The translations under genes were made by a program, and so were the position numbers. The notes beneath the pieces were generated by a model. It had not been told where the DNA came from. It saw nothing but the letters and a program-made list of their open reading frames with translations, and did no database searches. DNA of 34,899 nt from Candidatus Thorarchaeota archaeon (GTDB lineage Archaea > Asgardarchaeota > Thorarchaeia > Thorarchaeales > Thorarchaeaceae), in assembly GCA_003345595.1 (NCBI GenBank), contig PRDI01000027.1:1-34899 (forward strand), read 5' to 3'. The first letter of the stretch is position 1, and each line of letters starts with the position of its first letter. Below, in pieces: positions 2,950 to 34,875 of this stretch.

Positions 2950-3213
2950 ATGGTAGATCCAAATGAAATCATCATCCGACCGGTTGTGACAGAAGCTAGC
3001 CTTCAGGCAGTCGAGAGCCAGAACAAGCTGGTGTTCTATGTTGCTCGCTCGGCAAACAAGAACATGATAAAGTGGGCCATAGAGTCTCTCTATGATGTTG
3101 TCGTTGACAAGGTGAGCACTCAGATATTGCCTGATGGAAGAAAGAAGGCAACATTGCGTCTGGCGCCTGAATACAGTGCGGCCGATGTGGCGACGCAGCT
3201 GGGGATATTCTAA
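2950..3213 (+). CDS. rpl23: 50S ribosomal protein uL23
   Basis: IIRPVVTE...NKLVFYV...ANK...KKA...A.DVATQLGIF. Start moved to ATG 2950, which follows a GAGGTG RBS. Confidence 0.97.
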   Translation: MVDPNEIIIRPVVTEASLQAVESQNKLVFYVARSANKNMIKWAIESLYDVVVDKVSTQILPDGRKKATLRLAPEYSAADVATQLGIF

Positions 3214-3225
3214 GGAGGTGTTCGT

Positions 3226-3951
3226 GTGGGTAGACGAATACTAGCTCGAAGGAAAGGACGTGGTGCACAGCAGTTCACTTCACCTACGCATAAGAAGTTG
3301 GCACCCGCAATGCATCCGAAATGGGCCCCTGGGAAGACATACATGGGTGTCATATCCGCTCTCCGCCATGAGCCCGGCAGAGGTGCTCCTCTGGCAGTGG
3401 TGAGGTTTAAGGATGAGCCACAGTCCCACTACATTGTGGCTCCGGAAGGCGCTTATGTTGGTCAGGAGATTGAGTGTGGAGACGATGCAACTCTCGCTAA
3501 TGGCAACACCCTGATGCTTCAGCACATCCCGGAAGGGATGCCGATCTACAACATTGAGGGAAGCCCGGGTGACGGCGGCAAGTTCGTTCGAGCATCAGGA
3601 CTCTCTGCAACAGTGCTGTCTACTGACAAGACTCGCACCATAGTCAGATTGCCCAGTGGTCATCAGAGACCCTTCAGTCCCCGGTGCAGGGCTACGATAG
3701 GCATTGTCGCTGGAGGTGGACGCCCAGAAAAGCCGTTTCTCAAGGCTGGTGGAGTATTCCACAATATCAGTGGTAAGGCAATCAAGTGGCCAGTTGTACG
3801 TGGCTCCACAATGAACGCCTGTTCTCACCCCCACGGTGGTGGTTCTCACCAGTCTCCAAGCAAGCCCACAACTGTGAGCAGGAACGCACCTCCTGGACGC
3901 AAGGTAGGCCACATTGCTGCACGACGGACTGGTCTAAAGCGTAAGAAGTAG
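3226..3951 (+). CDS. rpl2: 50S ribosomal protein uL2
   Basis: MGRRILARRKGRG, HEPGRGAPLA, GDGGKFVRASG, HPHGGG, PPGRKVGHIAARRTG. GGAGGTG RBS before a GTG start. Confidence 0.98.
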   Translation: MGRRILARRKGRGAQQFTSPTHKKLAPAMHPKWAPGKTYMGVISALRHEPGRGAPLAVVRFKDEPQSHYIVAPEGAYVGQEIECGDDATLANGNTLMLQHIPEGMPIYNIEGSPGDGGKFVRASGLSATVLSTDKTRTIVRLPSGHQRPFSPRCRATIGIVAGGGRPEKPFLKAGGVFHNISGKAIKWPVVRGSTMNACSHPHGGGSHQSPSKPTTVSRNAPPGRKVGHIAARRTGLKRKK

Positions 3952-3961
3952 ATTCAGACCG

Positions 3962-4004
3962 GAGAGTGAAGAGGTCCGCCTCTTCATCTCGCCCCTTCTT
4001 TTCT
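3962..4004 (+). terminator. Hairpin plus pyrimidine tract after rpl2
   Basis: GAGA-G-TGAAGAGG [TCCG] CCTCTTCA-TCTC followed by GCCCCTTCTTTTCT. Confidence 0.65.
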
Positions 4005-4080
4005 AACAGAATGCAACTCAAACGCTGGTATTACACGAGTACATATCTTTCTGGAAGGACCTCTCTTCGGAGGACTGCCC

Positions 4081-6270: not shown

Positions 6271-7143
6271 TTGGGAGCTTTCGACCAAGACGAGGTGCAC
6301 AAGTTGTCCACTTCTGAACGGCACTTCTCCCTTCCATACATCCGCGAATCAGTCCTGCCCACACCGTTCTGTCCGGGGTGTGGGAACGGTATTATCATGA
6401 ACATATTCCTGAAAGCAGTGAAAGATCTTGGACATGACGACCTCAGCAAGTTCGCGTTTGTCTCCGGTATAGGGTGTGCGTCATGGGCCATCTCCCCTCA
6501 CTTCCTTGCAGACACACTACACACAACGCACGGTCGAGCTCTCGCCTTTGCCACTGGTCTCAAGGCGGCGCGCCCCGAGTTGAAGATAGTGGTCATAAGT
6601 GGTGATGGCGATTTGGCCGCTATTGGGGGTAACCACCTCATTCATGCGGCGCGCCGCAACATCGACATGACGGTCATATGCAGTAACAACTATGTGTACG
6701 GCATGACAGGGGGTCAAGTTGGTCCAACGACATTCAGTGGCGACAGGACGACCACATCCCCGTACGGGAATCCCGAGCGTCCCTTTGACCTCGCACGACT
6801 AGTCGCCGCAGCGGGTGCCAACTATGTCGCCCGATGGACCACCGCACATCCGATTCAAGCCTCGCGCGCCATAAGGAAAGCCCTACAACGCAAAGGCTTC
6901 ACATTTGTCGAGATACTCAGCCAATGTCCGACTGCATACGGCCGCCGGGTCAAGATGCCCAACCCGGTCGACATGATTGAGTGGTTCAAGAAGCTCCCCG
7001 TTCGGAAATCGGACTCGCCTGTCGAGTACAAGGTCCCCACAAAAGAGGGACAGGACCTCGGTGAGTTCGCTGATCGGGAGGAGCCGGAATTCATTGACTC
7101 ACTCAAACAGATGGCGGCAGGCGCAGGAGGGGAAACACGATGA
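6271..7143 (+). CDS. korB: 2-oxoacid:ferredoxin oxidoreductase beta subunit (TPP-binding)
   Basis: FCPGCG, SGIGC, HTTHGR, GDGD...NN TPP motif, YGMTGGQ, SQCPT. Substrate specificity cannot be determined from sequence. Confidence 0.9.
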   Translation: MGAFDQDEVHKLSTSERHFSLPYIRESVLPTPFCPGCGNGIIMNIFLKAVKDLGHDDLSKFAFVSGIGCASWAISPHFLADTLHTTHGRALAFATGLKAARPELKIVVISGDGDLAAIGGNHLIHAARRNIDMTVICSNNYVYGMTGGQVGPTTFSGDRTTTSPYGNPERPFDLARLVAAAGANYVARWTTAHPIQASRAIRKALQRKGFTFVEILSQCPTAYGRRVKMPNPVDMIEWFKKLPVRKSDSPVEYKVPTKEGQDLGEFADREEPEFIDSLKQMAAGAGGETR

Positions 7144-7667
7144 GGGTTGAGATTCGCATTGCTGGCACTGGTGGAATGGGCGTGGTGCTCGCTGGTGTAA
7201 TAGTCGGCCATGCTGCTGTTGTACACGGTGGTCTCAATGCGGTGCAGACACAGAGCTACGGGTCTGAGGCTCGGGGCACTGACGCCAAGAGTGAGGTCAT
7301 CGTGAGCGACCAGCCAATACACTATCCAAAGGTGCAGAAAGCAGACTACAGTGTTCTCATGTCTCAGAAGGCTTTTGACGCGTATGCGAGCGGTGCCAAG
7401 GAGCACAGCACGATCATCATCGACTCTGACTTGGTGGATTGTGGCACAACTCAGACAGAGTACGACATCGTTGGTGTCCCGGCAATGAGGCTTGCTGACG
7501 ACCTCGGCCAGAGGATGGTGTCAAACATGGTCATGCTGGGAGCTCTAATCAAGAAGTCGAGAGTCTTCCCCTTGGAAATCTTGGAGAAAGCCGTGGGCGA
7601 GATGGTGCCTGCGAAGTCCTTTGATGTCAATCTGCAAGCTGTCCGTGCCGGTGCAGCTCACGTCTGA
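7140..7667 (+). CDS. korC: 2-oxoacid:ferredoxin oxidoreductase gamma subunit
   Basis: EIRIAGTGGMG, QSYGSEARG, NMVMLGA. ATGA overlap with the beta subunit. Confidence 0.9.
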   Translation: MRVEIRIAGTGGMGVVLAGVIVGHAAVVHGGLNAVQTQSYGSEARGTDAKSEVIVSDQPIHYPKVQKADYSVLMSQKAFDAYASGAKEHSTIIIDSDLVDCGTTQTEYDIVGVPAMRLADDLGQRMVSNMVMLGALIKKSRVFPLEILEKAVGEMVPAKSFDVNLQAVRAGAAHV

Positions 7668-7942
7668 CCCCCATGCACGAGTGGGAGAATCACTATACTG
7701 TTCCCATTCCTGAGCTTAGTCTCAAGACCACCAGTCAGCTCAACGTCCACTCCATCACACATCATCAGTGTGTTCTGGCAGACCTGTTCAGGGTTTGTCC
7801 ATACCGCTCCGATGTTTCTCTCTGTGACGATTAGGGTTTCCAACAGGCCGCGAAGGCTGGTTTCCCTGTCGACCTCTATCTCAATCTCAGCCTTGCCTAC
7901 TCTGGTCGTAATGGGTCCCCTGAATCGGACAGTGATTCTCAT
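7658..7942 (-). CDS. MoaD/ThiS/SAMP-like ubiquitin-fold protein ending GG-QT
   Basis: MRITVRFRGP...LETKLRNGNSIVILPLVHGGQT, 94 aa from ATG 7942. Beta-grasp pattern with a di-glycine near the C-terminus. Confidence 0.85.
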   Translation of the reverse strand: MRITVRFRGPITTRVGKAEIEIEVDRETSLRGLLETLIVTERNIGAVWTNPEQVCQNTLMMCDGVDVELTGGLETKLRNGNSIVILPLVHGGQT

Positions 7943-8043
7943 GACGTTCGATGTCCAAGGTCGCTCACAGTGATAAACCAATCCAAGCAGTCGCATTCAG
8001 CTTGCAGACCGACACCTGACCCTTTGAACGGCTGGCCTCGTTA

Positions 8044-9000
8044 TCACATGCCGAATGACTGCTTCAGGGCATCTGGATTCAGCCTGCCTGCGGTGAAGGT
8101 CCTCTCATTAGTGACATCATTGATGGTGAACTCAGCGGGGCTGAACAGGTTTGGGTCGACCTTGTACAAGTCGAACCCCACGGACTTGAACAGGTCATAG
8201 AAGGGCTGACCATACTGAGGTGAAGCTGATGACGGGCATCTTTCAGTCAGGATGCCTAGATCTTCAGACTCTTCGCATCTCACGAAGAAGTATGCACGAC
8301 CACCATGCAGGATGCAGTCATTGGTGACTCCTATTGCCCTCCTGTCGTCCTCTGCAACAGGTGCGATTGGTGCAGTTCCATAACCTGTTCTGACCTTCCC
8401 GGGGTCGAGTCCTAGCATATGCAGCTTGTGCATGCCGGCTTCCACGACTCTGGCAGATGTCTGTACAGAACCGGCTGCACTAGCGGTCGGCGACATCAAA
8501 CAATAGAGGTTCGACGGAGATATACGACACGAGTCCGCTATGGACTGTGTGACTGTTTCTGGGGGCGGGTTTCTGGTTTCAAGGCAAATGACCCCAAAGT
8601 CACAGTCATCCCTGTAGTCCAACTCTGAGTAGAGCTTGGTTTCGACCGTTGCCAGAGCTCGTGCCGGACCCGAACCCAAGGCGAAATAGCCCTCTGACTC
8701 TATGGGCCAACCCGCATACTGTGATCCCAATGTGGCAATCCCTGGTAGATCCGTCCCAACAATGACTGCAGGCAGAGTCAGGTCTCCAATGTGTACACTA
8801 GTCAGTCTAACTGCACCTAGCCCCCCCATGCAGGCCTCTCCAATCAGTCGACCCGCTTCGGCTCCGCCGGATACTGCTATACCGGCGTCAACGAGAGTAG
8901 CTCCATTGCGCTGCTGTGTCACTGTGCAGTTGAGTTCATCCTTCCTATCTATAATCTCAAGGACAATCTCTAAGGCCTGTTTGTTCACACTCACTTTCAC
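8044..9000 (-). CDS. mch: Methenyl-tetrahydromethanopterin cyclohydrolase
   Basis: SVN, LVDAG, CMGGL, LGSQYAGW, GSGPARAL, SARVVE, TND, YGQPF, DPNLFSPA. GGAGG RBS before a GTG start. Confidence 0.95.
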   Translation of the reverse strand: MKVSVNKQALEIVLEIIDRKDELNCTVTQQRNGATLVDAGIAVSGGAEAGRLIGEACMGGLGAVRLTSVHIGDLTLPAVIVGTDLPGIATLGSQYAGWPIESEGYFALGSGPARALATVETKLYSELDYRDDCDFGVICLETRNPPPETVTQSIADSCRISPSNLYCLMSPTASAAGSVQTSARVVEAGMHKLHMLGLDPGKVRTGYGTAPIAPVAEDDRRAIGVTNDCILHGGRAYFFVRCEESEDLGILTERCPSSASPQYGQPFYDLFKSVGFDLYKVDPNLFSPAEFTINDVTNERTFTAGRLNPDALKQSFGM

Positions 9001-9207
9001 TTTGGTGCCTCCTCAGAGCGATATCTTCTGGATATCCTTCAGAGGTTCAACCACTATCATATTGGGTCAGACTTGGTGACATGCGGCTTCATGAGTTTGC
9101 GTATAGAGGTTTATCATCCATCATTGTTGTCGAAAGATTTATCTCTCGTAGCAGGGCCGAGAGCGCGGAATGGCGCTTCTGCCGGACTGTGAGCCTTTCC
9201 AACGAAA

Positions 9208-9317
9208 GCCCCAGTAGCTCAGCTGGTTAGATCGCCTCCTTGGTAAGACGGCTTGACACTTAGTCTGGCCTCACATGCAGGAGGAAGTCGCGAGTTCGAA
9301 TCTCGCCTGGGGCTCCA
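9208..9317 (+). tRNA. tRNA-Thr(GGU) with 33-nt intron at 37/38 (9246-9278); CCA encoded
   Basis: Acceptor GCCCCAG/CTGGGGC, discriminator T, anticodon stem CCTCC/GGAGG, anticodon GGT at 9242-9244, T-arm GCGAG-TTCGAAT-CTCGC. Confidence 0.93.
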
Positions 9318-9393
9318 TCATCTCTTCGCTTGCTTCTTGCTTGAATAGGGCCGGTAATCTCATGAGCATCATCGGAGCTGCACAATATGCGGT

Positions 9394-9666
9394 CTAGTCT
9401 TCTGACAGGCTGTCTTTCTTCTCTCTATTCTTCCTCTGGGTCGCCAGGCGCTGAGCCAGGAGTCGCTTGGCCTGTTCTGGTCCCACAATCTCGCTCAGCT
9501 TTTCTAGGGCACCAGGTTCGTCAGCTTTGTCCAGCCACTTTTCAATCTCTCTCTGGAGCGATGGTGAGAGGTCTTTCGCCAGTTTCTTGGTCCGACCCTT
9601 GCGGTCCAGTCCAAAATCGTCAGGCCCGAGAAGGCTCATTTCTAGTCGTTTCATCATACTCATCAA
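9394..9666 (-). CDS. Small charged hypothetical protein (5' end uncertain, possibly frameshifted)
   Basis: 90-aa K/E/R-rich, helical-looking ORF filling the gap between tRNA-Thr and the GH31 gene. No family recognised. Confidence 0.5.
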   Translation of the reverse strand: MMSMMKRLEMSLLGPDDFGLDRKGRTKKLAKDLSPSLQREIEKWLDKADEPGALEKLSEIVGPEQAKRLLAQRLATQRKNREKKDSLSED

Positions 9667-9812
9667 GAGGTTATGGCTTTTCCTTCACCTTGCTTTTTCG
9701 TGTTGTTCTTCGTGGACTGGGCACCGCCACTGACACATCATTCTCAGACAGCTCATACCAGGCCGTTTGAACGAGGCCCGATTCACTTCGCAACTGACAA
9801 AAGGGATTAACC

Positions 9813-12224
9813 ATGCGCCGATATGCGGAGTATCCAGAGTTGAACGGAAGCATCGGCAAGGTCATTCACGTCCAGCGTGACGCCAACATCTTCGAGTTTC
9901 AATGCACAGGTGGCAAGTCAAGGATAACGATACTTGCTCCCAGAATCATCCGTGTTCAGGCAACGCAGGATGACGAGTACCGCCGTTACGAATCCTTCGC
10001 CACGGTCGGCTACTCCGAGCCAGTTCCTGTCGAAGAAGAAGACCACGAAGACCGCAAGGTCATCTCTGGAGAGCACTTTAGACTGGAAGTGATGCTCAAT
10101 CAGTTTGTCCTTCGGCTGCTAGACTCTTCTCGAAGTGTCATTCAGGAGGACTTGCCATCGGGTGGTGTTGTCTGGAGCGGGAATGGGTTCGAATGCAGGA
10201 AGCGCATGCTGGGGAATGAGCATTTTTACGGCACGGGCGAGAAGGCTCATGGTCTGGACAAGAGAGGCCTTCACTATGAGATGTGGAATACTGACAACGG
10301 CGATCACGACTCAAAGACAGACCCCCTCTACCAGAGCATTCCCTTCTTCATAGTCTTTCGTGAGGGCGTTGCTCACGGCATCTTCTTGGACAACACATAT
10401 CGGACTGAACTCGATTTCGGTCTAAGAAACCCGAGCTATTACTCTTTCTCCGCGCCAAACGGTCCTCTGGACTACTACCTGTTTCTAGGGCCGAGGATCA
10501 GTGATGTTGTTGAGGAATACACCTCATTGACAGGGAAACCCTGCTTTGTGCCTCGCTGGGCGCTTGGACATCAACAATCGCGTTTCATGGAATACAGGAA
10601 CGAAGAGGACGTCCTCAGCGTAGCTCGGAACCTGCGCAATCACAGGATTCCATGTGACACCATGGTGCTTGACATCGGGTATATGAACGAGTGCCGAGTG
10701 TTCACCTGGGACCAGAAGGTGTTTTCCGACCCAAAGGCATTCACAAGCAGCTTGGCCCGAATGGGGTTCAAAGTGATGACTATAATTGATCCGGGCGTGA
10801 AGCTTGAAGACGGGTACTTCATGTACGATGAAGGCGTACGAGCCGGCTATTTTCTGGCGAAGGAGAATGGGTCTCTGTATGTGGGGTTAGTATGGGCTGG
10901 CGAAACAGTCTTCCCCGATTTTTCACGATCCGAGGTAAGAGCATGGTTTGGGTCGAAATACAAGATGCTTGCAGATTCTGGTACAAGCAATAGCAGTTGG
11001 ATCGATATGAATGAACCAAGCAACTGCATCTACGATAAGCTGAAAGACGAGTACTCGATGGTGGATGTAGTGGACTGCCAAGGAAACCCTTGGGAGGCAA
11101 GACTGCGTAACGTCTATGCACTTGGCATGGCTCAAGCTGTCTTCGGGGGTCTGAAAGACGCATTCCCCGGCAAGAGGCCCTTCATCCTGACACGATCAGG
11201 ATTTGCAGGATACCAGCGCTACGCGGCAATGTGGACTGGTGATAACCACTCCACTTGGGACATGCTATGGCTCTCCATTCCGATGCTTCTTAATCTTGGT
11301 CTGTCGGGAGTGCCGTTTTGCGGCGCTGACATCGGTGGTTTTGGAGGAGATACGACACCCGAGCTGCTTGCACGCTGGTATCAGCTAGGTGCATTCTATC
11401 CGTTCTCTAGGAACCACTCCGACATTCGGTCCATAAGGCAGGAGCCTTGGCTCTTCGGTGAGGAAGCGGAGAGCGTGGCGCGTGACTCCGTGTCTTTCAG
11501 ATATCTCCTCATGCGATACTTCTACTCTCTTGCTAAGACTGCTAGCACAAGCGGCATTCCAATCATGCGTCCTCTGGTCTTGGAGTTTCAAGATGATCCT
11601 GCAACATATACCCTTGACACACAATTCATGATTGGGCCCTTCTTGATGGTGGCTCCCGTTCTCGAAGAAGGTGCGAATTCACGCGAGGTATACTTCCCGC
11701 GAGGAAGATGGTATGACTTGTGGACAGACACGAGCATTGAGGGGCCACAGAGTCTTCGGGTAGATGCACCGTTCGACAGAATACCCGTCTACCTGCGCGC
11801 GGGTTCCATCATTCCAACCGGGCGTATTGTTCAGAACACAGATGAAGATCAAGGGGACCTAGTCCTCTGGGTCTACCCGGGTGGTACAAGCACTACGGCG
11901 GTCTTCGAAGATGACGGTATTTCGGATAATGAACAGAGTTGCGAAACAACTTTCGCCCAGGATTCGACGGATGATAGAGTGGTAGTTACAATCGACAAGA
12001 GAAAGGGTCGCTGGAAGCCGGCTGAACGATCACTCGTCCTTGAAGTAAAGGGGTTGACAAGGCCGAAGTCGGTCGAAGCTGACGGAAAGCGAGTGTTGCA
12101 GGAGAAGACGGTTGCTGGACTCGAGAAGCGCTCTCCCTCGTCATTCTATGACCTGGCTCACAAGACACTTCACATGAAACTCAAAGATGACGGAAACTCT
12201 CACAAAATCTCTCTGGTCTTGTGA
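9813..12224 (+). CDS. Glycoside hydrolase family 31 alpha-glucosidase
   Basis: LYQSIPF, PRWALG, IIDPG, nucleophile motif WIDMNEP, acid/base WTGDN, GADIGGF, FYPFSRNH, QEPW. No evident signal peptide. Confidence 0.95.
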   Translation: MRRYAEYPELNGSIGKVIHVQRDANIFEFQCTGGKSRITILAPRIIRVQATQDDEYRRYESFATVGYSEPVPVEEEDHEDRKVISGEHFRLEVMLNQFVLRLLDSSRSVIQEDLPSGGVVWSGNGFECRKRMLGNEHFYGTGEKAHGLDKRGLHYEMWNTDNGDHDSKTDPLYQSIPFFIVFREGVAHGIFLDNTYRTELDFGLRNPSYYSFSAPNGPLDYYLFLGPRISDVVEEYTSLTGKPCFVPRWALGHQQSRFMEYRNEEDVLSVARNLRNHRIPCDTMVLDIGYMNECRVFTWDQKVFSDPKAFTSSLARMGFKVMTIIDPGVKLEDGYFMYDEGVRAGYFLAKENGSLYVGLVWAGETVFPDFSRSEVRAWFGSKYKMLADSGTSNSSWIDMNEPSNCIYDKLKDEYSMVDVVDCQGNPWEARLRNVYALGMAQAVFGGLKDAFPGKRPFILTRSGFAGYQRYAAMWTGDNHSTWDMLWLSIPMLLNLGLSGVPFCGADIGGFGGDTTPELLARWYQLGAFYPFSRNHSDIRSIRQEPWLFGEEAESVARDSVSFRYLLMRYFYSLAKTASTSGIPIMRPLVLEFQDDPATYTLDTQFMIGPFLMVAPVLEEGANSREVYFPRGRWYDLWTDTSIEGPQSLRVDAPFDRIPVYLRAGSIIPTGRIVQNTDEDQGDLVLWVYPGGTSTTAVFEDDGISDNEQSCETTFAQDSTDDRVVVTIDKRKGRWKPAERSLVLEVKGLTRPKSVEADGKRVLQEKTVAGLEKRSPSSFYDLAHKTLHMKLKDDGNSHKISLVL

Positions 12225-27370: not shown

Positions 27371-28240
27371 TTGTGTGATTGGTGTATGAAGCACGGAGCT
27401 GGCGGCAAGTGGTACATGAATGCGAGGAACTACTCCTATGAGCTCGCTGAGGAGTACAACATGCAGGCGTACCTCGAAGAACAGTGGAAGAACATGGAAA
27501 CCCTGTTCATCCGCAAGATCATGGGGTTCAGTTCCATTGGTCTCGGGTACAAGATGCAGATGCCGCTCATCGGACGTTTTCTTCGGTGGGCCGCTGAGAG
27601 GCAGATACACAGCGAGAAGCCCGGACGAAACCCGGTGAGAGCCGATGGCCACTTCGGACAGGTACTCCCCCTTGAGGACGCTCAGCACATAATTGGCAAC
27701 CTAGCGGCTGAGCCCATCATAAAGAACTACTGTGTATGCAGGTGGATGCAAAGAGGAGTGAAGGATGCTGTGTGCATCAATTTCGGCTGTCTCAGTAATA
27801 TAATCCCGAAACTCACTAGATACATCCCGGTTGATCAGAAGTGGCAGCTGGACAGGGAGGAGGCCATTGCAGCTCTCGAGGAGCAGAACAAGAGAGGATA
27901 TGTAGCATCTGTCTGGTTCCAGCCAGTGCCCTACATCAATGCAATATGCTCATGTGAGAGTCCGGAGTGTGGAGGCCTACGCCTAAGGAACGACTTCGGC
28001 CTCAGGACGGTCTACAAAGGCGAATACGTCGTCACGCTTGACCGTGACAAGTGCCAAGGTTGCAAGAACTGTGTTAAGATGTGTCAGTTTGGAGCTCTCC
28101 GGTATCTTCCATCAATCAAGAAGGTAATTGTCAACCACGACAAATGCTTTGGATGTGGAGTATGCAGGCACGCATGCAACAACGATGCCCTCACTCTCGT
28201 ACCCCGGGAGTCAGTGCCCGGACAGGCTGGCAAGTTCTAG
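27371..28240 (+). CDS. Cys-rich Fe-S protein with C-terminal 2x[4Fe-4S] ferredoxin domain
   Basis: Two CxxCxxCxxxC motifs at the C-terminus, plus CxxCxxH, CVCR and CSC-x4-C. Confidence 0.85.
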   Translation: MCDWCMKHGAGGKWYMNARNYSYELAEEYNMQAYLEEQWKNMETLFIRKIMGFSSIGLGYKMQMPLIGRFLRWAAERQIHSEKPGRNPVRADGHFGQVLPLEDAQHIIGNLAAEPIIKNYCVCRWMQRGVKDAVCINFGCLSNIIPKLTRYIPVDQKWQLDREEAIAALEEQNKRGYVASVWFQPVPYINAICSCESPECGGLRLRNDFGLRTVYKGEYVVTLDRDKCQGCKNCVKMCQFGALRYLPSIKKVIVNHDKCFGCGVCRHACNNDALTLVPRESVPGQAGKF

Positions 28241-28254
28241 CGGTGGTGAACTGA

Positions 28255-28536
28255 ATGGACAAGACACAGATCAAGATCGACTACAAGAAGTGTGGTCCCA
28301 ATGCAAGGATCGACCCCAGAGAGTGCAGGAAGTGCATGAATGTCTGTGACCCGGCAGTGTTTCTGATGCACCCAACGCTTGAGGAGCACAAGGACCCGTA
28401 CAACCCGGAGAAATGGTTAGTGACGCCTGTTTGGCCCTGCATGTGCACTGGATGCATGAGATGTGCACAGGTATGTCCGGAACAGGCAATCACAGTAAAA
28501 GCACAGCGGTCTCTGTATCAACTACGTCAGCCTTAG
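28255..28536 (+). CDS. 2x[4Fe-4S] ferredoxin
   Basis: C-x10-CxxCxxxC and CxxCxxCxxxCP motifs. GGTGGTGA RBS. Confidence 0.85.
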   Translation: MDKTQIKIDYKKCGPNARIDPRECRKCMNVCDPAVFLMHPTLEEHKDPYNPEKWLVTPVWPCMCTGCMRCAQVCPEQAITVKAQRSLYQLRQP

Positions 28537-28608: not shown

Positions 28609-29688
28609 TCAGGGTTGAAGAGTAGTTATCGGCCGTGCCTGAACCACAACTAGGCGAGAGCCCTTGATACACCACTCTACGTCCTGAGGGCAACCCAGAA
28701 GATGCTCAATCTCCAAGCCCTTCCGCGCAATCCTCAGTATCTCTCGATCCTCCAACGTGAACTCTTCCTGCTTGTCACGTGGTGTTGACTGAAGCAATAC
28801 GCGTTCTCCCTCATCGCTTTCACTAGGCACAGCTGTGACTGCCTTTGAACCAAGCGTGCGCTGTATCACCCGCATTGGATCCTTACCGAGTACATAGGTG
28901 TCAGGTACTATCCTCCCTGAAACCAGGGGTTCTCCTAGCCCCCAAGTGGATTCTACTATCATCTGGCTGTGGTCATTCGTAACTGTATTGGCTGTGAACA
29001 TGACACCGGAAACGTCTGCCGGAATCATCTCTTGCACAATGACCCCCATTGCTACTCTGTTGATTCTGATGCCCCTGCTGTGAAGATATAGAACAGAGCG
29101 TGAAGAAATGGCTGACTGCCATGTCCTCTTCACAGCATCGATAATGTTCTCAACTCCATTCACACCTAGGAAGCTCTCAGCCTGTCCCGCGAACGAAACC
29201 TGCTTTCCATCTTCTATGTTGGCTGAGGATCGGACTGCATACTTCGTGTCGTGACTGCCTACTCTCCTGTCGAGCTGCAGGAAGGCAGCAGCGATCTCTT
29301 CTCTCATCTTCTTGGCCATCGTGCACTGCCCCCCAAGCTGCTCAAGCTCTGTAGCAGCATCCAGAATCTCTTCGATGTTGGTTGAGGCTTCTAGACGTTG
29401 CAGCACTTCTCGCGAACGGGGCACTCTGTCCAAGAACTCCGTGAAGCAGTCGCAAGAGATTGTGAACCCGTTCGGCACATCGATACCTGCACGATAAAGC
29501 CGCCCAAGGTTTACTGCCTTGCCACCGAGCTTCTCGTATTCGTCTTGATTTATCTGTTCCAAGAACGTGACTGAATGAAACCGCCGAGTCGGAGAATCAT
29601 CTAGGCCATGATCCGGATGCGAGGTTTCCATCCTGGTCTTCTCTCCTGAGGACGACTTCTCCCTTCGGCGCGCCAAAGTAGCAGTCAC
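28609..29688 (-). CDS. Stand-alone PEP-synthase/PPDK N-terminal ATP-grasp (nucleotide-binding) domain protein
   Basis: GGKAVNL, VPNGF, AVRSSA..ED...SFAGQ, VIVQEMI, SGVMFT, WGLGEPLVSG, PQDVEW, QARPIT, then stop. Alternative start at ATG 29631. Confidence 0.92.
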   Translation of the reverse strand: MTATLARRREKSSSGEKTRMETSHPDHGLDDSPTRRFHSVTFLEQINQDEYEKLGGKAVNLGRLYRAGIDVPNGFTISCDCFTEFLDRVPRSREVLQRLEASTNIEEILDAATELEQLGGQCTMAKKMREEIAAAFLQLDRRVGSHDTKYAVRSSANIEDGKQVSFAGQAESFLGVNGVENIIDAVKRTWQSAISSRSVLYLHSRGIRINRVAMGVIVQEMIPADVSGVMFTANTVTNDHSQMIVESTWGLGEPLVSGRIVPDTYVLGKDPMRVIQRTLGSKAVTAVPSESDEGERVLLQSTPRDKQEEFTLEDREILRIARKGLEIEHLLGCPQDVEWCIKGSRLVVVQARPITTLQP

Positions 29689-30035
29689 TCCGATAGCAGA
29701 AGCACACCACCGGCCCCTTCGTCTGGTTGGATGGCCACTCTTTTGCGGTCAAGGCTTTCTGATGTTTCTAGTTTGGTGCCCATCAGCGCAGGAATCTGAA
29801 GCTCTCGGGTGACAATGGCTAAGTGAGAGCCGAGTGCTCCTGATGTGCAGACCACTCCTGCGAGCTTTGGGAGCACAGGGGCCAATGTGGTCGTGCCTGC
29901 GTCCTCAACGAGGACGATTTTACCGTCTGGTCCCTCCTTCCAGAGCTTGATTACGTCCTGGATAGATTTCACGACGCGCAGCTCTCCTTCTGCACTGAGT
30001 CTTAGGGTGATGAGCCCAACTCCGACTCTTCTCAA
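29685..30035 (-). CDS. Stand-alone PEP-utilising mobile (phospho-His swivel) domain protein
   Basis: AGVVCTSGALGSHLAIVTRELQIPALMG matches the G..SH.AI..RE..IP signature. Only 116 aa. Confidence 0.9.
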   Translation of the reverse strand: MRRVGVGLITLRLSAEGELRVVKSIQDVIKLWKEGPDGKIVLVEDAGTTTLAPVLPKLAGVVCTSGALGSHLAIVTRELQIPALMGTKLETSESLDRKRVAIQPDEGAGGVLLLSE

Positions 30036-30083
30036 CTCAGCAGGCCACCAAGACGATATCTTGGCGCTAGGCCGGACCGGGTC

Positions 30084-30194
30084 TTAAAAGAGTCGTGCAT
30101 CTTGACCAGCAGTGTATCGCTAGGATGCCAAATCACTGATGGTTTATCGAAAGACGCCGATTAAGAGGAGTAGCATGTCTGAAATGCTTAATAT
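30084..30194. promoter_or_regulatory. Divergent promoter region (two back-to-back TATA candidates)
   Basis: Minus-strand TTTTAA at 30089-30084 and plus-strand TTAATAT at 30188-30194, each about 50 nt from the facing start codon. Confidence 0.5.
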
Positions 30195-30248
30195 CCGCCA
30201 CAGGGCCGGAGCCAGTTCAATCCGTTTTCAAGACTGTCGCGTGGAGCT

Positions 30249-31415
30249 GTGATTTTGTTGCAGATTCGGGACGCAAACAAACAAATAACTCACCTCTCCT
30301 CGGTCTTCACAAACATCCTGATGGAGAGGGGACTCTTAGAGTCTAAGCTTTTCCCCGTGAATGCTTACATATGCGTTGGTTTCTATCAGACATACGCACG
30401 TCTTTATGATGTCATGAAACAGGTCTGGCAGAAGACAACACCGGAGGAGCTGGCAAAGAAGAGCAAGACCCTGCTCTCAGAAGTTCAGGCTCTATCCACA
30501 ACCTACCTTTGGCTCTACTACTCCCTAGCAAGGATGGGTGTCATCTTCAACAAGTTTGGGGGTGACGTATCCAAGGAGCCCAAAGAGAAACGCGAGCAAT
30601 GGCTCTTCATGCTCGATAACTGGTACAGACTTGCGACCAACTACTTCAACACAGGGAAGCCGACCGTAGCGGCTTCAGGTGGCACGAACCTAGCTTTTGA
30701 CAAGAAGACCATCAGTTGGCTGGTGGATCACCTCCAACCTGTCACCGAGGAAAAAGCAACAAAGACCAGACGTGCAATAGCGTCCGTCGACCTGTACGCA
30801 TTCATGGAAGAATGTGAGGCCCGCGCGAAGATAATTGATCATGGGCCCTATCCGTTGGACGGCGGCGAGGTCCTAGTAGTTTCAGAGTACACGAACCTAT
30901 ACGACGGGACTGGCGATCTCTGGTTGCCCTGGTCCAAGACTGACGCCAAGCTTCCGTCTTCCTCTTTGGGTGTGGCCATGACACTCAAGGGTGCAAGTGT
31001 GACTTTCAATGATGTCGGCACGATGACGGTAGAACCAGGTGACTACTCCAAGCTCGTAACCAAGATGGGCGCCTACACGAAACGCGCTGGCAAGGTGGTC
31101 CCGATTGGCCTTGACGAGCTGTCTGCATATGCGCAAGCGGCAGATGCTGCTCAAGCTGAGCTCTACATGAAGTTCGCAGAATGGGACCGGAAGCAGCTTC
31201 TCATTGCTGGAGCCACCGCATACTGGCGTGGATTCGCAAGGTTCACGAATCAGGTGGGCATAACCAAGAAGATAGACTGGGGTCTCTCGCCCTCCGTGGT
31301 AGAGGAGTATCTTCCGAAGTTCATGGAAGTCGACGCAGACCCGGCATTCTTCAGAATGTTTCGTGAGCCCGAGGAGCTGGAAAAGGACCCAACACTCTAC
31401 CTACTCCCAGGGTAG
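30249..31415 (+). CDS. Hypothetical soluble protein, 388 aa (candidate phospho-acceptor/substrate-binding subunit)
   Basis: Long ORF with globular composition, aromatic-rich helical N-terminal half, no TM segment. Function inferred from context only. Confidence 0.8.
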   Translation: MILLQIRDANKQITHLSSVFTNILMERGLLESKLFPVNAYICVGFYQTYARLYDVMKQVWQKTTPEELAKKSKTLLSEVQALSTTYLWLYYSLARMGVIFNKFGGDVSKEPKEKREQWLFMLDNWYRLATNYFNTGKPTVAASGGTNLAFDKKTISWLVDHLQPVTEEKATKTRRAIASVDLYAFMEECEARAKIIDHGPYPLDGGEVLVVSEYTNLYDGTGDLWLPWSKTDAKLPSSSLGVAMTLKGASVTFNDVGTMTVEPGDYSKLVTKMGAYTKRAGKVVPIGLDELSAYAQAADAAQAELYMKFAEWDRKQLLIAGATAYWRGFARFTNQVGITKKIDWGLSPSVVEEYLPKFMEVDADPAFFRMFREPEELEKDPTLYLLPG

Positions 31416-31444
31416 TGAGGTTGAACGTACGGACGTGATGTCAC

Positions 31445-32380
31445 ATGAGTAGACCCAGTGAAACCGATGAATCTCTCCATTCGCCGTCTGGGCGTCCGGA
31501 CTGGCGCGAGAGCTACTACTTCAACTTCGTCGATTCAGGACTGAACGTGTCTGGCTTCTCAACCATCGGTCTTCTGCCCAATGTCGGTAAGCGCGAATTC
31601 GTCTTTGTTCTCTTTCACGATGGCAAGCGAGAAGTGTACTTTGTCGAGCCTACAGGTGCAGTCCCGAAGGGTCATGCCGAGTCTCTCTCTGATGGCCATT
31701 TGAGCTATGAGCTCATCAGCCCTCTTCATGAGTGGAGAATCAGTTTCGCCGGAGTCGACATGACAGCGGAACTGAAGTGGAAGGCGCGATACCCGGCATA
31801 CATGTTCGGCACAGGAAGTGGTACGTCTTGGACTGGCCACTTCGAGCAGTCTGGACGTGTGACTGGCACGATAGAGTTGGCGAAGGGTGGACCAATCAAG
31901 CTGAAGGGCCTTGGTGAGCGTGACAAGAGCTGGGGCACACGCGATTGGCACATCGAGGGCTGGTTTGCTCTCCACGCACAGTTCGAAACCTTCTCGATAG
32001 GGCTTCGACGTGACATGGTGAAGGGGGAAGCGCATTCGTCGGGTGGCATCTCTTCGGCTAGGAAGCACGTGCCAGTCACAGATGTTGAGCTTCAAACCGG
32101 GTTCTCAAGAGGTGAATCGCGTATGCCAATCAAGGCCAAAACGCGTGTTCACGGGGCAGACGGTTCTTGCTACACCCTACAGTCAAAAATGATATCGCCT
32201 AGTGCTTTCGTCAGATTCTCTCGCCCGTTCCCCGGCGGTACAACTGAGCTATACGAAAACATGGCTGTCCACAAGTGTCAGGAGTCAGGTGAAACAGGCA
32301 GCGGGCTGCTAGAGTGGCTGTTCACACATCCTGAAACACAAGGGCCGGCTGCGGATCAGAAGACCCGCCCGGCACCTTGA
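31445..32380 (+). CDS. Tocopherol-cyclase/CrtC/AttH-like beta-barrel protein
   Basis: WRESYYFNF, GHFEQSGRVTGTI, GLGERDKSWGTRDW, C-terminal GSGLLEW. Beta-strand-rich. Confidence 0.7.
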   Translation: MSRPSETDESLHSPSGRPDWRESYYFNFVDSGLNVSGFSTIGLLPNVGKREFVFVLFHDGKREVYFVEPTGAVPKGHAESLSDGHLSYELISPLHEWRISFAGVDMTAELKWKARYPAYMFGTGSGTSWTGHFEQSGRVTGTIELAKGGPIKLKGLGERDKSWGTRDWHIEGWFALHAQFETFSIGLRRDMVKGEAHSSGGISSARKHVPVTDVELQTGFSRGESRMPIKAKTRVHGADGSCYTLQSKMISPSAFVRFSRPFPGGTTELYENMAVHKCQESGETGSGLLEWLFTHPETQGPAADQKTRPAP

Positions 32381-32401: not shown

Positions 32402-34129
32402 TCACGTTGTCAGCATTGTGGGTATAGGAAGAGCTGCCGCCAGAACCCAAGCGAACAACATAGCATTGACTGCAGCACCAAGGTAGTAGTGGTCTGTAAG
32501 GTGATAGCCCCACACCGTGACGACCGCGCTAGTGGCGAAATAGGGCGTGAAGGCATAGAAAAACAGGAGAGAGAAACCTGCATACCCCACAATGATTGGC
32601 ATCCCCGTGATTAGACCAAAGCCGTACTCAAGTATCACGATGGAGAGGTACGGGATGCACTTGATGAACATCGCCCTAATGGTCCAGTCCAACTGTGTAC
32701 GACCCCAAGTCTGTTTCGCCCCCGTCCTCAAAACCCCCATCAACCAGAACCCGTCAACCAAGAAGTAGACGAAAAACACTACAAAGTACAGCGGCGCTAC
32801 TAGCGCACGAGCTGGCGTGAGGTCGTTGAACCCGGGGAGGAAACACCGGATGTCGAGTGCGAAACCTAGGTCAACCAAGAGGGTCCATGCATAGAGCCAG
32901 ACAGTCACAGAGAGAGCCAACAGGAGAGTTCTCACGAGCTTTCGGAGTGGTACTTCAGAACCACCGTCTATGCTGACGAGGGATTTGAGGCTGACACCAG
33001 ATCTAGGAAACCGCCAAAGGACGAGAGCGGCAATCAGTGCACTTCCCAGAATCCATGTGCTCACCGCAAGACCAAAGCTTTGCAGCGGGTGAATCACTCC
33101 TTCCGCCAACGCGCCAATTGCTAAGAGCGGGAAGAACGTTCCCAGACCAATCGCACCGTAGACAAGCCCCCGGATGACGTACGACTTGCTACTTGCCGGA
33201 TTTCCTGTGTTGGATTCATGTTTCAGTCCGGAGAAGGCGGGAAGGTCGATTACGATTGCCAGCAACGGAAACACCGAGAGAAGTGCGCCAAGGAGGCTCA
33301 GGAATCCCCCTACCAGCCAACATGGATAGATGAGGTCTGTCTTCTGAAGCCAGTGTGCGTCCTCTGATCCTCCTTTTAGAGTGTCCTTCATCCATTCAAC
33401 ACTCTCACTCACAATCTCTGGGTTCACTGTTTCGAACAGATGGTTTGTACGGGCAATGAAAAGCTCACGAGCAGTCCCGTTTCTGAAGTCACCATAAACG
33501 GTGCCTGCTTCGATGTCTGTGCGACCGAACGACTCCTGCAGACCAGTGCGGTTTGTGGAATAGCGCACGAGAGAATCAAACTCGCCTACTGCAACGAGCA
33601 TGTTTCTAGGATACGTTGTGTTGGCTGTGTCAATGACAGGGCTGCCAACTATGACCAGCGCATTCACAGCGACTGTCGAGTTCTGAATGGCAGTCCACGC
33701 GATTCCTCCTCCCATACTATGACCGATGATACCGATAGAGGACGCATTGACGTAGTCGAGTGTGGTCAGAAACTCTAGGGCAGCAGTCCCTGCACCTGTG
33801 CCCGGGTCTGAGTCACCATGCCCGTTTGCATCGATTGTCAGCACGACAAATCCTCGTCGGGCCAACTCGATACCGAAGGCCATGAGCCATTCCTTGCTCT
33901 GAATGATGCCGTGAATCACCACTACAGCTGGAAGCGGGACTGAGTTCGTGGCGTAGGTAGGCCTCTGGAGGGTGCTGTGTATATTGGAGCCATCAGCTGC
34001 CCGGAAGTCGACTTCAGTCACAGCGACACTGCCCAGCCCTCCTTGGATCACAGATGCTGTGGCAGTGCCGGTTAGGATTAGAACCACACTGAGTATCAGT
34101 ATGACATACCTTGGGCGGAATCTTGACAT
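32402..34129 (-). CDS. Membrane-anchored alpha/beta hydrolase with polytopic C-terminal domain
   Basis: N-terminal signal/TM, HG oxyanion motif, GHG.S, nucleophile GHSMGG, candidate Asp (GEFD) and His (NHLFE), then about 8 TM segments. Confidence 0.88.
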   Translation of the reverse strand: MSRFRPRYVILILSVVLILTGTATASVIQGGLGSVAVTEVDFRAADGSNIHSTLQRPTYATNSVPLPAVVVIHGIIQSKEWLMAFGIELARRGFVVLTIDANGHGDSDPGTGAGTAALEFLTTLDYVNASSIGIIGHSMGGGIAWTAIQNSTVAVNALVIVGSPVIDTANTTYPRNMLVAVGEFDSLVRYSTNRTGLQESFGRTDIEAGTVYGDFRNGTARELFIARTNHLFETVNPEIVSESVEWMKDTLKGGSEDAHWLQKTDLIYPCWLVGGFLSLLGALLSVFPLLAIVIDLPAFSGLKHESNTGNPASSKSYVIRGLVYGAIGLGTFFPLLAIGALAEGVIHPLQSFGLAVSTWILGSALIAALVLWRFPRSGVSLKSLVSIDGGSEVPLRKLVRTLLLALSVTVWLYAWTLLVDLGFALDIRCFLPGFNDLTPARALVAPLYFVVFFVYFLVDGFWLMGVLRTGAKQTWGRTQLDWTIRAMFIKCIPYLSIVILEYGFGLITGMPIIVGYAGFSLLFFYAFTPYFATSAVVTVWGYHLTDHYYLGAAVNAMLFAWVLAAALPIPTMLTT

Positions 34130-34236
34130 GGACTGCTTCTCCTGAGTGAACCCCGACTGTTGTCAATCCCCCATTTATCTAGTATGAATCTGAGGAATAG
34201 GAATCCATATCATGCTCATGAGCATCTCGTACTTCG

Positions 34237-34875
34237 ATGCCAGACTGGGAACAGATATTCGGTGAAAGGGGCAAGGTCTTCACCGAACCCCATAAGGACA
34301 TGGCTAGGATTGCCGATCTGTTCTGCGACAAAGGCGTTCACAGGGTCTTGGACTTGGGCTGTGGAACCGGACGACACCTCGTATTCTTCTCGCGACGCGG
34401 GTTCGAGGTGTACGGCTTCGATGCGTCGCCTCGGGCGCTATCTATAGCTCATCAATGGTTACACGAGGAAGGTCTTGAAGCAGACCTGAGGCTGCACCGG
34501 ATGGAGAATCGTTTTCCTTATGCCGATGCATTCTTCGATGCCATCGTTTCGGTACAAGTGATTCATCACAACCTGATGAAGGGCATTTTGAAGACGGCAC
34601 GGGAAATTGATAGGGTTCTAAAGCCTGGAGGTCTGGTTTTCATAACTGTGTCGACAATGACCGAGTACCGCTCTAGAGAGGACTGGGCCCTGGAACTGAT
34701 TGAGAAGGATACATACCTTCCTCATGCAGGCCCTGAGAGTGGCCTACTACACCACTACTTCACTGAGGAAGAGATACGTACGGTCTTCAGTTCGTTCGAC
34801 GTCCTGGAGCTGTACATAGACGACACAAGGCATAGGTGCTTCCTAGGGGTCAAGAGAAACCTCCATGATGGCTAA
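34237..34875 (+). CDS. Class I SAM-dependent methyltransferase
   Basis: VLDLGCGTGRH, GFDAS, FDAIVS, RVLKPGG. Confidence 0.92.
   Translation: MPDWEQIFGERGKVFTEPHKDMARIADLFCDKGVHRVLDLGCGTGRHLVFFSRRGFEVYGFDASPRALSIAHQWLHEEGLEADLRLHRMENRFPYADAFFDAIVSVQVIHHNLMKGILKTAREIDRVLKPGGLVFITVSTMTEYRSREDWALELIEKDTYLPHAGPESGLLHHYFTEEEIRTVFSSFDVLELYIDDTRHRCFLGVKRNLHDG

Follow-up and report, generated by a model that had tools for sequence, protein, structure and literature searches.

Two kinds of described system come close to the locus analysed here. One is represented by HpeHI, CreHI, PpsAB and RPH, in which a PPDK_N ATP-grasp domain and a histidine-bearing swivel domain deliver phosphate to a hydroxyl group of a non-pyruvate substrate (PMC12167813, PMC4844700); HpeHI, CreHI and PpsAB are two-component dikinases with a separate ATP-grasp subunit (PMC12167813). 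The other is the pair formed by 25-hydroxysteroid kinase (25-HSK) and 25-phosphosteroid lyase (25-PSL) in Sterolibacterium denitrificans, which spends ATP to dehydrate a tertiary alcohol: an ATP-dependent kinase first forms a phosphoester at the tertiary C25 of the steroid, and 25-PSL then removes the phosphate by elimination (PMC8449060, PMC11061730). Our locus lies on contig PRDI01000027.1 (positions 1 to 34,899, a stretch of 34,899 nucleotides (nt) hereafter called the window) of a Candidatus Thorarchaeota metagenome-assembled genome (GCA_003345595.1; 2.73 Mb, 83% complete). It encodes a stand-alone ATP-grasp protein, a free phospho-His swivel, a protein that we call X388 and a homologue of 25-PSL, and constitutes a conserved, uncharacterised system in which known chemistry is joined to a module of apparently new fold. 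We propose that these four separate proteins probably make up an ATP-dependent dehydratase or alcohol-activating system.

The genes are arranged as two divergent pairs, and all four open reading frames (ORFs) are present as described in an earlier note on this DNA. On the minus strand, the swivel gene (29685-30035; 116 residues, with the catalytic His71 encoded at 29823-29825) is followed by the ATP-grasp gene (28609-29688; longest ORF 359 residues). On the plus strand, the gene for X388, the proposed acceptor-substrate module (30258-31415), is followed 29 nt past its stop codon by the ORF of a 311-residue DUF7065/DUF7064 two-barrel protein (31445-32380), the proposed phosphate-eliminating lyase. 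The pyruvate-binding barrel, said to be missing from the window, is indeed missing: no PEP-utilizers_C (PF02896) match was found there, and the sole such barrel of the 2.73-Mb genome belongs to a 922-residue PPDK on contig C24. PPDK_N domains occur three times in this genome, namely in the PPDK, in a 953-residue RPH-type protein on contig C120 and in the split pair of the window.

The ATP-grasp protein is a complete PPDK_N domain and nothing else (PF01326, E 2.9e-81, profile positions 3-312 of 328), and its matches to the PpsA, RPH and PigC models are confined to their N-terminal third. Its C-terminus reads ...VVQARPITTLQP before the stop codon and extends five residues beyond QARPIT, the motif right after which the earlier note saw the protein stop. 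The swivel is a PEP-utilizers mobile domain (PF00391, E 4.6e-12) with the motif GSH71LAIVTRE, in which S70-H71 and R77-E78 are invariant among 14 representatives, including those from lineages without the ATP-grasp gene. The overlap reported between the two genes amounts to 4 nt when the longest ATP-grasp ORF is used, and it depends on that start. It is uncertain because most homologues align only from about residue 26-43 of the ORF, and ATG 29631 (Met20) may well be the true start. All 24 Thorarchaeota loci of the first retrieval have the split genes intact, with identities of 41-84% for the ATP-grasp protein, 60-97% for the swivel and 61-95% for X388. The ATP-grasp gene adjoins the swivel gene in every Thorarchaeota locus in which the flank is present, as well as in Hermod-type and Atabeyarchaeial loci, and its product is the proposed loader of the swivel histidine.

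The longest ORF of X388 spans 30249-31415 and encodes 388 residues, the length given in the earlier note together with a spacer of 213 nt. Homologues are 385 residues long and, in one relative (L002), the upstream GTG frame meets a TGA codon immediately. We therefore place the start at TTG 30258, which corrects the protein to 385 residues and consequently the spacer to 222 nt. The description of the protein as one of unknown family stands, as X388 has no Pfam, NCBIfam or PDB sequence match. Similarly, a Pfam scan of 68 family members revealed no shared family, and the family profile found nothing below E 0.15 among PDB sequences. In the ESM Atlas, X388 resembled one unnamed bacterial cluster, at 0.78, which is under the useful range. 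A HMMER scan of 1.84 billion representatives recovered 183 clusters related to X388. The C-terminal extensions of two longer relatives (P0188 and P0246) were considered as possible fused PSL domains and show no similarity to them.

The X388 structure was modelled with AlphaFold2 on the 68-sequence alignment, with a predicted local distance difference test score (pLDDT) of 96.9 and a predicted template modelling score (pTM) of 0.94. From its N- to its C-terminus, the model comprises a helical region (residues 6-187), a sheet of seven strands (195-286) and further helices (288-379). A known unrelated fold was looked for with the whole model, as the earlier note had advised, and none was found: the best Foldseek match in the PDB has an E-value of 0.29, and VIA-align, which is independent of Foldseek, gave a best Z of 4.7 against 48,161 chains, none reaching Z 5. 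In these whole-model searches the predicted fold is thus apparently new, with no solved match. The possibility that X388 corresponds to the RIF-binding or central domain of RPH-type enzymes was also considered, and hhalign gave a probability of 0.3% when the 68-sequence profile was compared with the centre of the genome's own 953-residue dikinase. Together with the negative fold searches, this argues that X388 is not a diverged RIF-binding or PEP-binding domain (PEP, phosphoenolpyruvate). Residues R27, R95, R175, E190, R192 (100%), G199, P200, Y201 and G321 are conserved family-wide, and the four family-wide arginines and the invariant R192...GPY201 motif would suit a phosphate site.

The 311-residue protein matches DUF7065 (53.8 bits, cut-off 27) and DUF7064 (25.7 bits, cut-off 24.7), both above the gathering cut-offs. 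With its AlphaFold2 model (pLDDT 92.5), the five best Foldseek matches are all 25-PSL (E 5.9e-16, probability 1.00, TMq 0.72, about 350 columns), at about 15% sequence identity. The next matches, at E 4e-10 to 3e-8, are the Diels-Alderases Fsa2, CghA and Phm7, kievitone hydratase and AttH. When the profile of 53 family members was compared with PDB sequences, 25-PSL was the sole match (E 1.4e-13), with the G-x-RD-x-SWG-x-R motif aligned; within this motif, R159, D160, G164 and R166 are invariant in the 53 relatives. Fold and sequence thus identify the protein as a homologue of 25-PSL. Of the earlier description as CrtC/tocopherol-cyclase-like, the CrtC-like part is right at the level of the superfamily fold, which the protein shares with kievitone hydratase (E 6.1e-10) and AttH (2ich, E 1.4e-8), but both are far behind 25-PSL, its closest relative. 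No tocopherol cyclase stands among the Foldseek matches listed or the Pfam matches, an absence that leaves distant kinship possible.

That the two gene pairs belong together is supported by their distribution. Our survey took in 78 archaeal loci representing about nine lineages (Thorarchaeota, Methanomethylicia, Bathyarchaeia, Brockarchaeota, other Thermoproteota, and Lokiarchaeal, Hermod-type, Freyarchaeial and Atabeyarchaeial genomes), 72 of which have enough flanking sequence for linkage to be counted. A swivel gene lies at most 1.5 kb upstream of the X388 gene in 61 (divergently in 60 of those), and a DUF7065 gene lies directly 3' of it in 69. Loci without an adjacent swivel gene are mostly of the Hermod type, and these hold a swivel gene followed by an ATP-grasp gene in the same direction 0.1-5 kb upstream. 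Moreover, two proteins from Acidimicrobiia (P0147, 516 residues, and P0211, 575 residues) fuse an N-terminal swivel, with its catalytic His kept, to an X domain, and the swivel gene of sister genomes runs 8 nt into the beginning of the X gene. Finally, two Lokiarchaeal genomes have their sole stand-alone ATP-grasp gene next to another copy of the swivel gene and additional X-family genes. One has a rightward PSL gene followed by leftward X' and swivel genes and a rightward ATP-grasp gene; in the other, a contig end carries an ATP-grasp gene, a swivel gene and two X' copies.

As judged from sequence, fusion and linkage show that the swivel and X388 act together. The linkage survey that the earlier note had called for thus came out in favour of its proposal: the fusions, the linkage kept across lineages, the rearranged paralogous module and the invariant His71 are the reasons for regarding the ATP-grasp/swivel and X388/lyase pairs as one system. 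X388 is 60-70% identical between Thorarchaeota and TACK archaea, and only 43-47% identical to the Lokiarchaeal, Freyarchaeial and Atabeyarchaeial copies, a pattern which suggests that the cassette was transferred horizontally.

A second association of the same kind is found elsewhere in the genome, which has exactly two PSL-family genes: one follows X388, and the other directly follows the RPH-type dikinase. In this second lyase-coupled system (contig C120, L146:272-4937), the 953-residue dikinase consists of PPDK_N, a centre of about 500 residues and a swivel; the gene for a 322-residue DUF7065/DUF7064 paralogue follows after 11 nt and is overlapped by 4 nt by that for a PRC-barrel protein. 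The pairing of dikinase and PSL paralogue recurs in five other Asgard genomes and in Brockarchaeota (L108:9092-12780), where both systems stand side by side: a leftward swivel gene and rightward X388 and PSL genes are followed by leftward genes for a PSL paralogue and a 908-residue dikinase, and then by a rightward gene for a 289-residue Fe-S protein (fer289) that is discussed below. In Bathyarchaeia, a PSL paralogue lies beside an HpeH-like protein (centre and swivel), that is, a split form without the ATP-grasp. Among 61 sampled Asgard genomes, 12 have the PSL family, and 20 of the 24 informative PSL genes adjoin either an X-family gene (14) or an RPH-type dikinase gene (6). By linkage, therefore, the PSL family appears to go with His-swivel phosphotransferases generally.

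How does the module compare with the described systems? It shares with HpeHI, CreHI, PpsAB and RPH the ATP-grasp and His swivel, and with HpeI and PpsB the ATP-grasp as a separate polypeptide (PMC12167813, PMC4844700). However, those enzymes have their swivel fused C-terminally to a RIF-binding-type helical domain, whereas the window encodes a free 116-residue swivel and an X388 of unrelated predicted fold. Where relatives are fused, the order is swivel then X, the reverse of the HpeHI type (domain then swivel). The window thus has three polypeptides where HpeHI, CreHI and PpsAB have two (domain and swivel on one, ATP-grasp on the second), and it couples a lyase, which HpeHI, CreHI, PpsAB and RPH do not. 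PEP synthase and PPDK have homologous ATP-grasp and swivel domains, but also a PEP/pyruvate TIM barrel that the window lacks, and their domains are not on separate polypeptides as they are here. The RPH-type dikinase of contig C120 resembles the module in being a His-swivel dikinase followed by a DUF7065/DUF7064 protein, and differs in being a single chain of 953 residues, in which an RPH-like centre takes the place of X388. Of the traits of His-swivel dikinases, PPDK_N and a mobile domain with the His of G-x-(S/T/C)-H are therefore present and a known third domain is absent, and the module falls outside the described dikinase subfamilies in its third module and its polypeptide organisation. 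Our literature search found no paper on the X family, DUF7065, 25-PSL itself or the dikinase-lyase pairing, and within the literature searched the module would be the first fully three-way-split member of the PpsA/RPH dikinases to be described.

Regarding overall chemistry, the closest parallel is 25-HSK/25-PSL (PDB 9fzn, 9g2i and 9g4c), in which an unreactive alcohol is phosphorylated by ATP and the phosphate is then eliminated to give an alkene. There, the kinase is a single 40-kDa protein that works through a ternary complex and releases ADP, and its gene is not beside the lyase gene (PMC8449060), whereas in the window the genes of a putative phospho-His relay lie beside the lyase gene. The two settings also differ in their organisms. 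To our knowledge, the hosts of the window are anaerobic archaea in which sterol degradation is not known.

From these comparisons, we predict a function in which phosphorylation is followed by elimination; the homology of the 311-residue protein with 25-PSL makes ATP-dependent dehydration the likely outcome. The ATP-grasp protein would bind ATP and phosphorylate the free swivel at His71; by analogy with PpsA, PpsAB, RPH and HpeHI, a pyrophosphoryl-His intermediate would form, and AMP and inorganic phosphate (Pi) would be released. The phospho-swivel would then dock on X388, where the phosphate would pass to an acceptor hydroxyl. Lastly, the 25-PSL homologue, as its homology and linkage suggest, would expel the phosphate to leave an alkene or a carbocation-derived product. 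In this scheme we infer the direction of transfer, the AMP and Pi stoichiometry, the reaction of the lyase and the kind of substrate. Two things suggest a hydrophobic alcohol, possibly an isoprenoid and probably tertiary: the alcohol of the 25-PSL precedent is a tertiary steroid one, and the lyase has lipocalin-like barrels.

Several points weigh against this proposal. The swivel, X388 and PSL genes occur without a dedicated ATP-grasp gene in two genomes each of Methanomethylicia and Bathyarchaeia and on a complete Freyarchaeial chromosome of 3.6 Mb. The sole PPDK_N match in each of these five genomes is a frame of PpsA length (805-859 residues), taken as canonical PpsA because the two such frames scanned with Pfam carry the PEP-binding barrel. 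Likewise, in 16 Acidimicrobiia loci where swivel and X genes are fused or adjacent, no PPDK_N was found up to 7 kb from them. As the ATP-grasp is inconstant, the invariant core is the swivel, X388 and the lyase, and a three-polypeptide ATP dikinase is not the whole story in those lineages. The proposal made in the earlier note, that X388 is the third module of such a dikinase for a non-pyruvate substrate, is supported by fusion and linkage, with the qualification that its ATP-grasp component is not constant. Furthermore, the acceptor role of X388 is argued from the presence of the ATP-grasp and not from features of X388 itself, and homology with 25-PSL falls short of proving lyase chemistry because the PSL fold also serves hydratases and Diels-Alderases.

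In lineages without the ATP-grasp gene, the swivel could be charged by PpsA in trans, by a non-ATP donor or by X388 itself. The last option leads to a different reading, in which X388 is a loading module that charges the swivel His from PEP, pyrophosphate, polyphosphate or another phosphoester, some other protein, perhaps the PSL homologue, uses the phospho-His, and the Thorarchaeota ATP-grasp is an alternative or additional loader. The swivel, X388 and PSL core found without a dedicated ATP-grasp in Methanomethylicia, Bathyarchaeia, Freyarchaeia and Acidimicrobiia speaks for it, as does HpeH, which alone moves phosphate between two phenolic phosphoesters (PMC12167813), so that a single substrate module can serve both half-reactions. 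Yet wherever a stand-alone ATP-grasp gene is present (Thorarchaeota, Hermod-type, Atabeyarchaeial and second Lokiarchaeal modules), it sits inside the module, which would then have two loaders and no unloader. In addition, X388 neither shows a nucleotide-binding motif nor matches any kinase in fold, and the solved 25-PSL entries, according to their titles, hold free phosphate and steroid with no protein partner. We regard a donor-side X388 as improbable.

A further alternative keeps the relay and changes its outcome: the phosphorylated compound would be a stable end product, as in rifampin or phenol phosphorylation, and the DUF7065/DUF7064 protein would be a hydratase, cyclase or pericyclase acting on it or on a related hydrophobic molecule. 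The same two-barrel fold does occur in kievitone hydratase, AttH and the Diels-Alderases Fsa2, CghA and Phm7, and the known split dikinases HpeHI and PpsAB feed carboxylases and other enzymes, not lyases (PMC12167813). However, the E-value of the fold match to 25-PSL is about six orders of magnitude below that of any other protein (5.9e-16 vs 4.2e-10), 25-PSL is also the sole PDB sequence match of the family profile, the RDxSWGxR motif is common to both proteins, and the Asgard PSL genes mostly adjoin phosphotransferase genes (the 20 of 24 above), all of which makes a stable phosphorylated product rather unlikely. It could also be argued that there is no system at all, the ATP-grasp and swivel genes being remnants of ppsA or rph, or the gene pairs being neighbours by descent only. 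Gene order within Thorarchaeota, taken by itself, could indeed reflect vertical inheritance. Decay, which the earlier note had raised, is ruled out by ORFs that are intact in at least 24 Thorarchaeota genomes and by the separate PPDK and RPH-type dikinase encoded elsewhere in the genome; common descent alone fits poorly with the fusions and with linkage kept across phyla and in a paralogous module. We therefore consider the absence of a system extremely improbable, and retain phosphorylation through a phospho-His relay followed by elimination as the proposed function.

Two further genes of the neighbourhood, absent from the earlier note, are added here. On the plus strand, fer289 (27371-28240) encodes a 289-residue Fe-S protein with a Cys-rich N-terminal part of about 215 residues without known family (CDWC, CVC and CSCxxxxC motifs) and a C-terminal 2x[4Fe-4S] ferredoxin domain, and a 93-residue ferredoxin gene (28255-28536; Fer4_7, E 2.3e-9) follows on the same strand. 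Only the C-terminus of fer289 matches Fer4 families or PDB chains; its look-alikes in the Atlas, unnamed proteins labelled '4Fe-4S', come from Chloroflexota, Thermodesulfobacteriota and Asgard archaea. The protein is 66-83% identical across archaeal phyla, and a fer289-type gene lies within 7 kb of X388 in 47 of the 78 loci, in at least four arrangements. In seven of the eight representative loci holding it, a homologue of the ferredoxin gene (84-96 residues) lies directly 3'. In Methanomethylicia, fer289 is 120 kb away, and a search with the fer289 protein of the window found no orthologue in two Acidimicrobiia genomes. The two proteins might, speculatively, carry out a redox step on the product. 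In the relative L002 (=L051; MFD04408.bin.2.157), the Fe-S gene and the PSL gene each align in two frames (3158-4025 and 7197-8082), which may reflect frameshifts or assembly errors.

The divergent spacer (30036-30257) contains blocks that are alike in an alignment of four Thorarchaeota, namely TCTTAAAAGA, GGATGCCAA, ATCGAAA, GCCGAT, GTCTGAAA and the TATA-like TTAATAT, and these probably represent two promoters. A 25-residue ORF with a GAGGAG box upstream of X388 (30176-30253) was discarded as a gene candidate, its ATG not being conserved in relatives. On the other side of the module, positions 32402-34875 encode a 575-residue alpha/beta hydrolase, with hydrolase-family matches confined to its N-terminal 200 residues or so, and then an S-adenosylmethionine (SAM) methyltransferase, the first gene convergent with the module and the second divergent; both lie beyond the module, and their synteny extends to most Thorarchaeota and to no other lineage. 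More generally, when 15 representative neighbourhoods were compared all against all, only the swivel/ATP-grasp, X388, PSL, fer289 and small ferredoxin genes were conserved, and the synteny of the alpha/beta hydrolase, methyltransferase, CPBP protease and acs genes was limited to Thorarchaeota.

Some loci show variations of their own. In two Thorarchaeota (L024 (=L111), 7140-11419, and L021 (=L097), 6816-11105), an insert of about 4.3 kb splits the X388 and PSL genes, which are otherwise 15-50 nt apart. The Freyarchaeial chromosome carries X' and PSL' genes and, farther along in the same direction, swivel and X genes (L098:3340-8164); its two X paralogues, 36% and 47% identical to X388 of the window, are accompanied by one free swivel. 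Some 130 kb from there is a third PSL gene, which has no X gene next to it, and no stand-alone ATP-grasp gene was found anywhere on this chromosome. In a Hermod-type genome (Promethearchaeota DZ2M.269, L025:8089-8547), the gene for a 152-residue phosphatase of the dual-specificity or protein tyrosine phosphatase (PTP) type begins 3 nt past the PSL homologue. In four related Bathyarchaeia (L071:5560-6426, and L073, L110 and L076), a UbiA-family prenyltransferase gene lies directly 3' of the swivel gene, a lineage-limited neighbour that hints faintly at an isoprenoid substrate. The distribution of the system is patchy. Within the family to which the window belongs, only two of six other genomes have PSL, the four without it being 95-98% complete, and the X family was detected in six of 301 sampled Actinomycetota (one of them, G092, flagged as unpublished).

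We know of essentially one pathway, that of bacterial sterols, in which small molecules undergo ATP-dependent dehydration through phosphorylation and elimination. If our reading is right, this chemistry would be common among uncultured archaea of the Asgard and TACK groups and would also occur in some Actinomycetota, driven there by another kinase principle, a phospho-His relay. A bolder version, in which X388 founds a new structural class of phospho-His-dependent enzymes and the swivel/X388/PSL cassette, with optional ATP-grasp and Fe-S proteins, is a widespread, horizontally mobile archaeal pathway dehydrating tertiary isoprenoid-type alcohols, with another phosphate donor in genomes lacking the ATP-grasp, seems doubtful at present. 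On that version, the pathway of those genomes might even run in reverse, as the phosphoryl-transfer potential of tertiary alkyl phosphates equals or exceeds that of ATP (PMC8449060). The X388 family itself, which comprises about 180 clusters at 50% identity and lacks both a Pfam model and a solved structural relative, acquires a candidate role as phospho-acceptor. The locus likewise offers a clue to the function of the DUF7065/DUF7064 family, to which Rv3169-type proteins belong. Finally, the identity of the substrate could expose a new step in the anaerobic metabolism of isoprenoids or lipids by the archaea related to eukaryotes.

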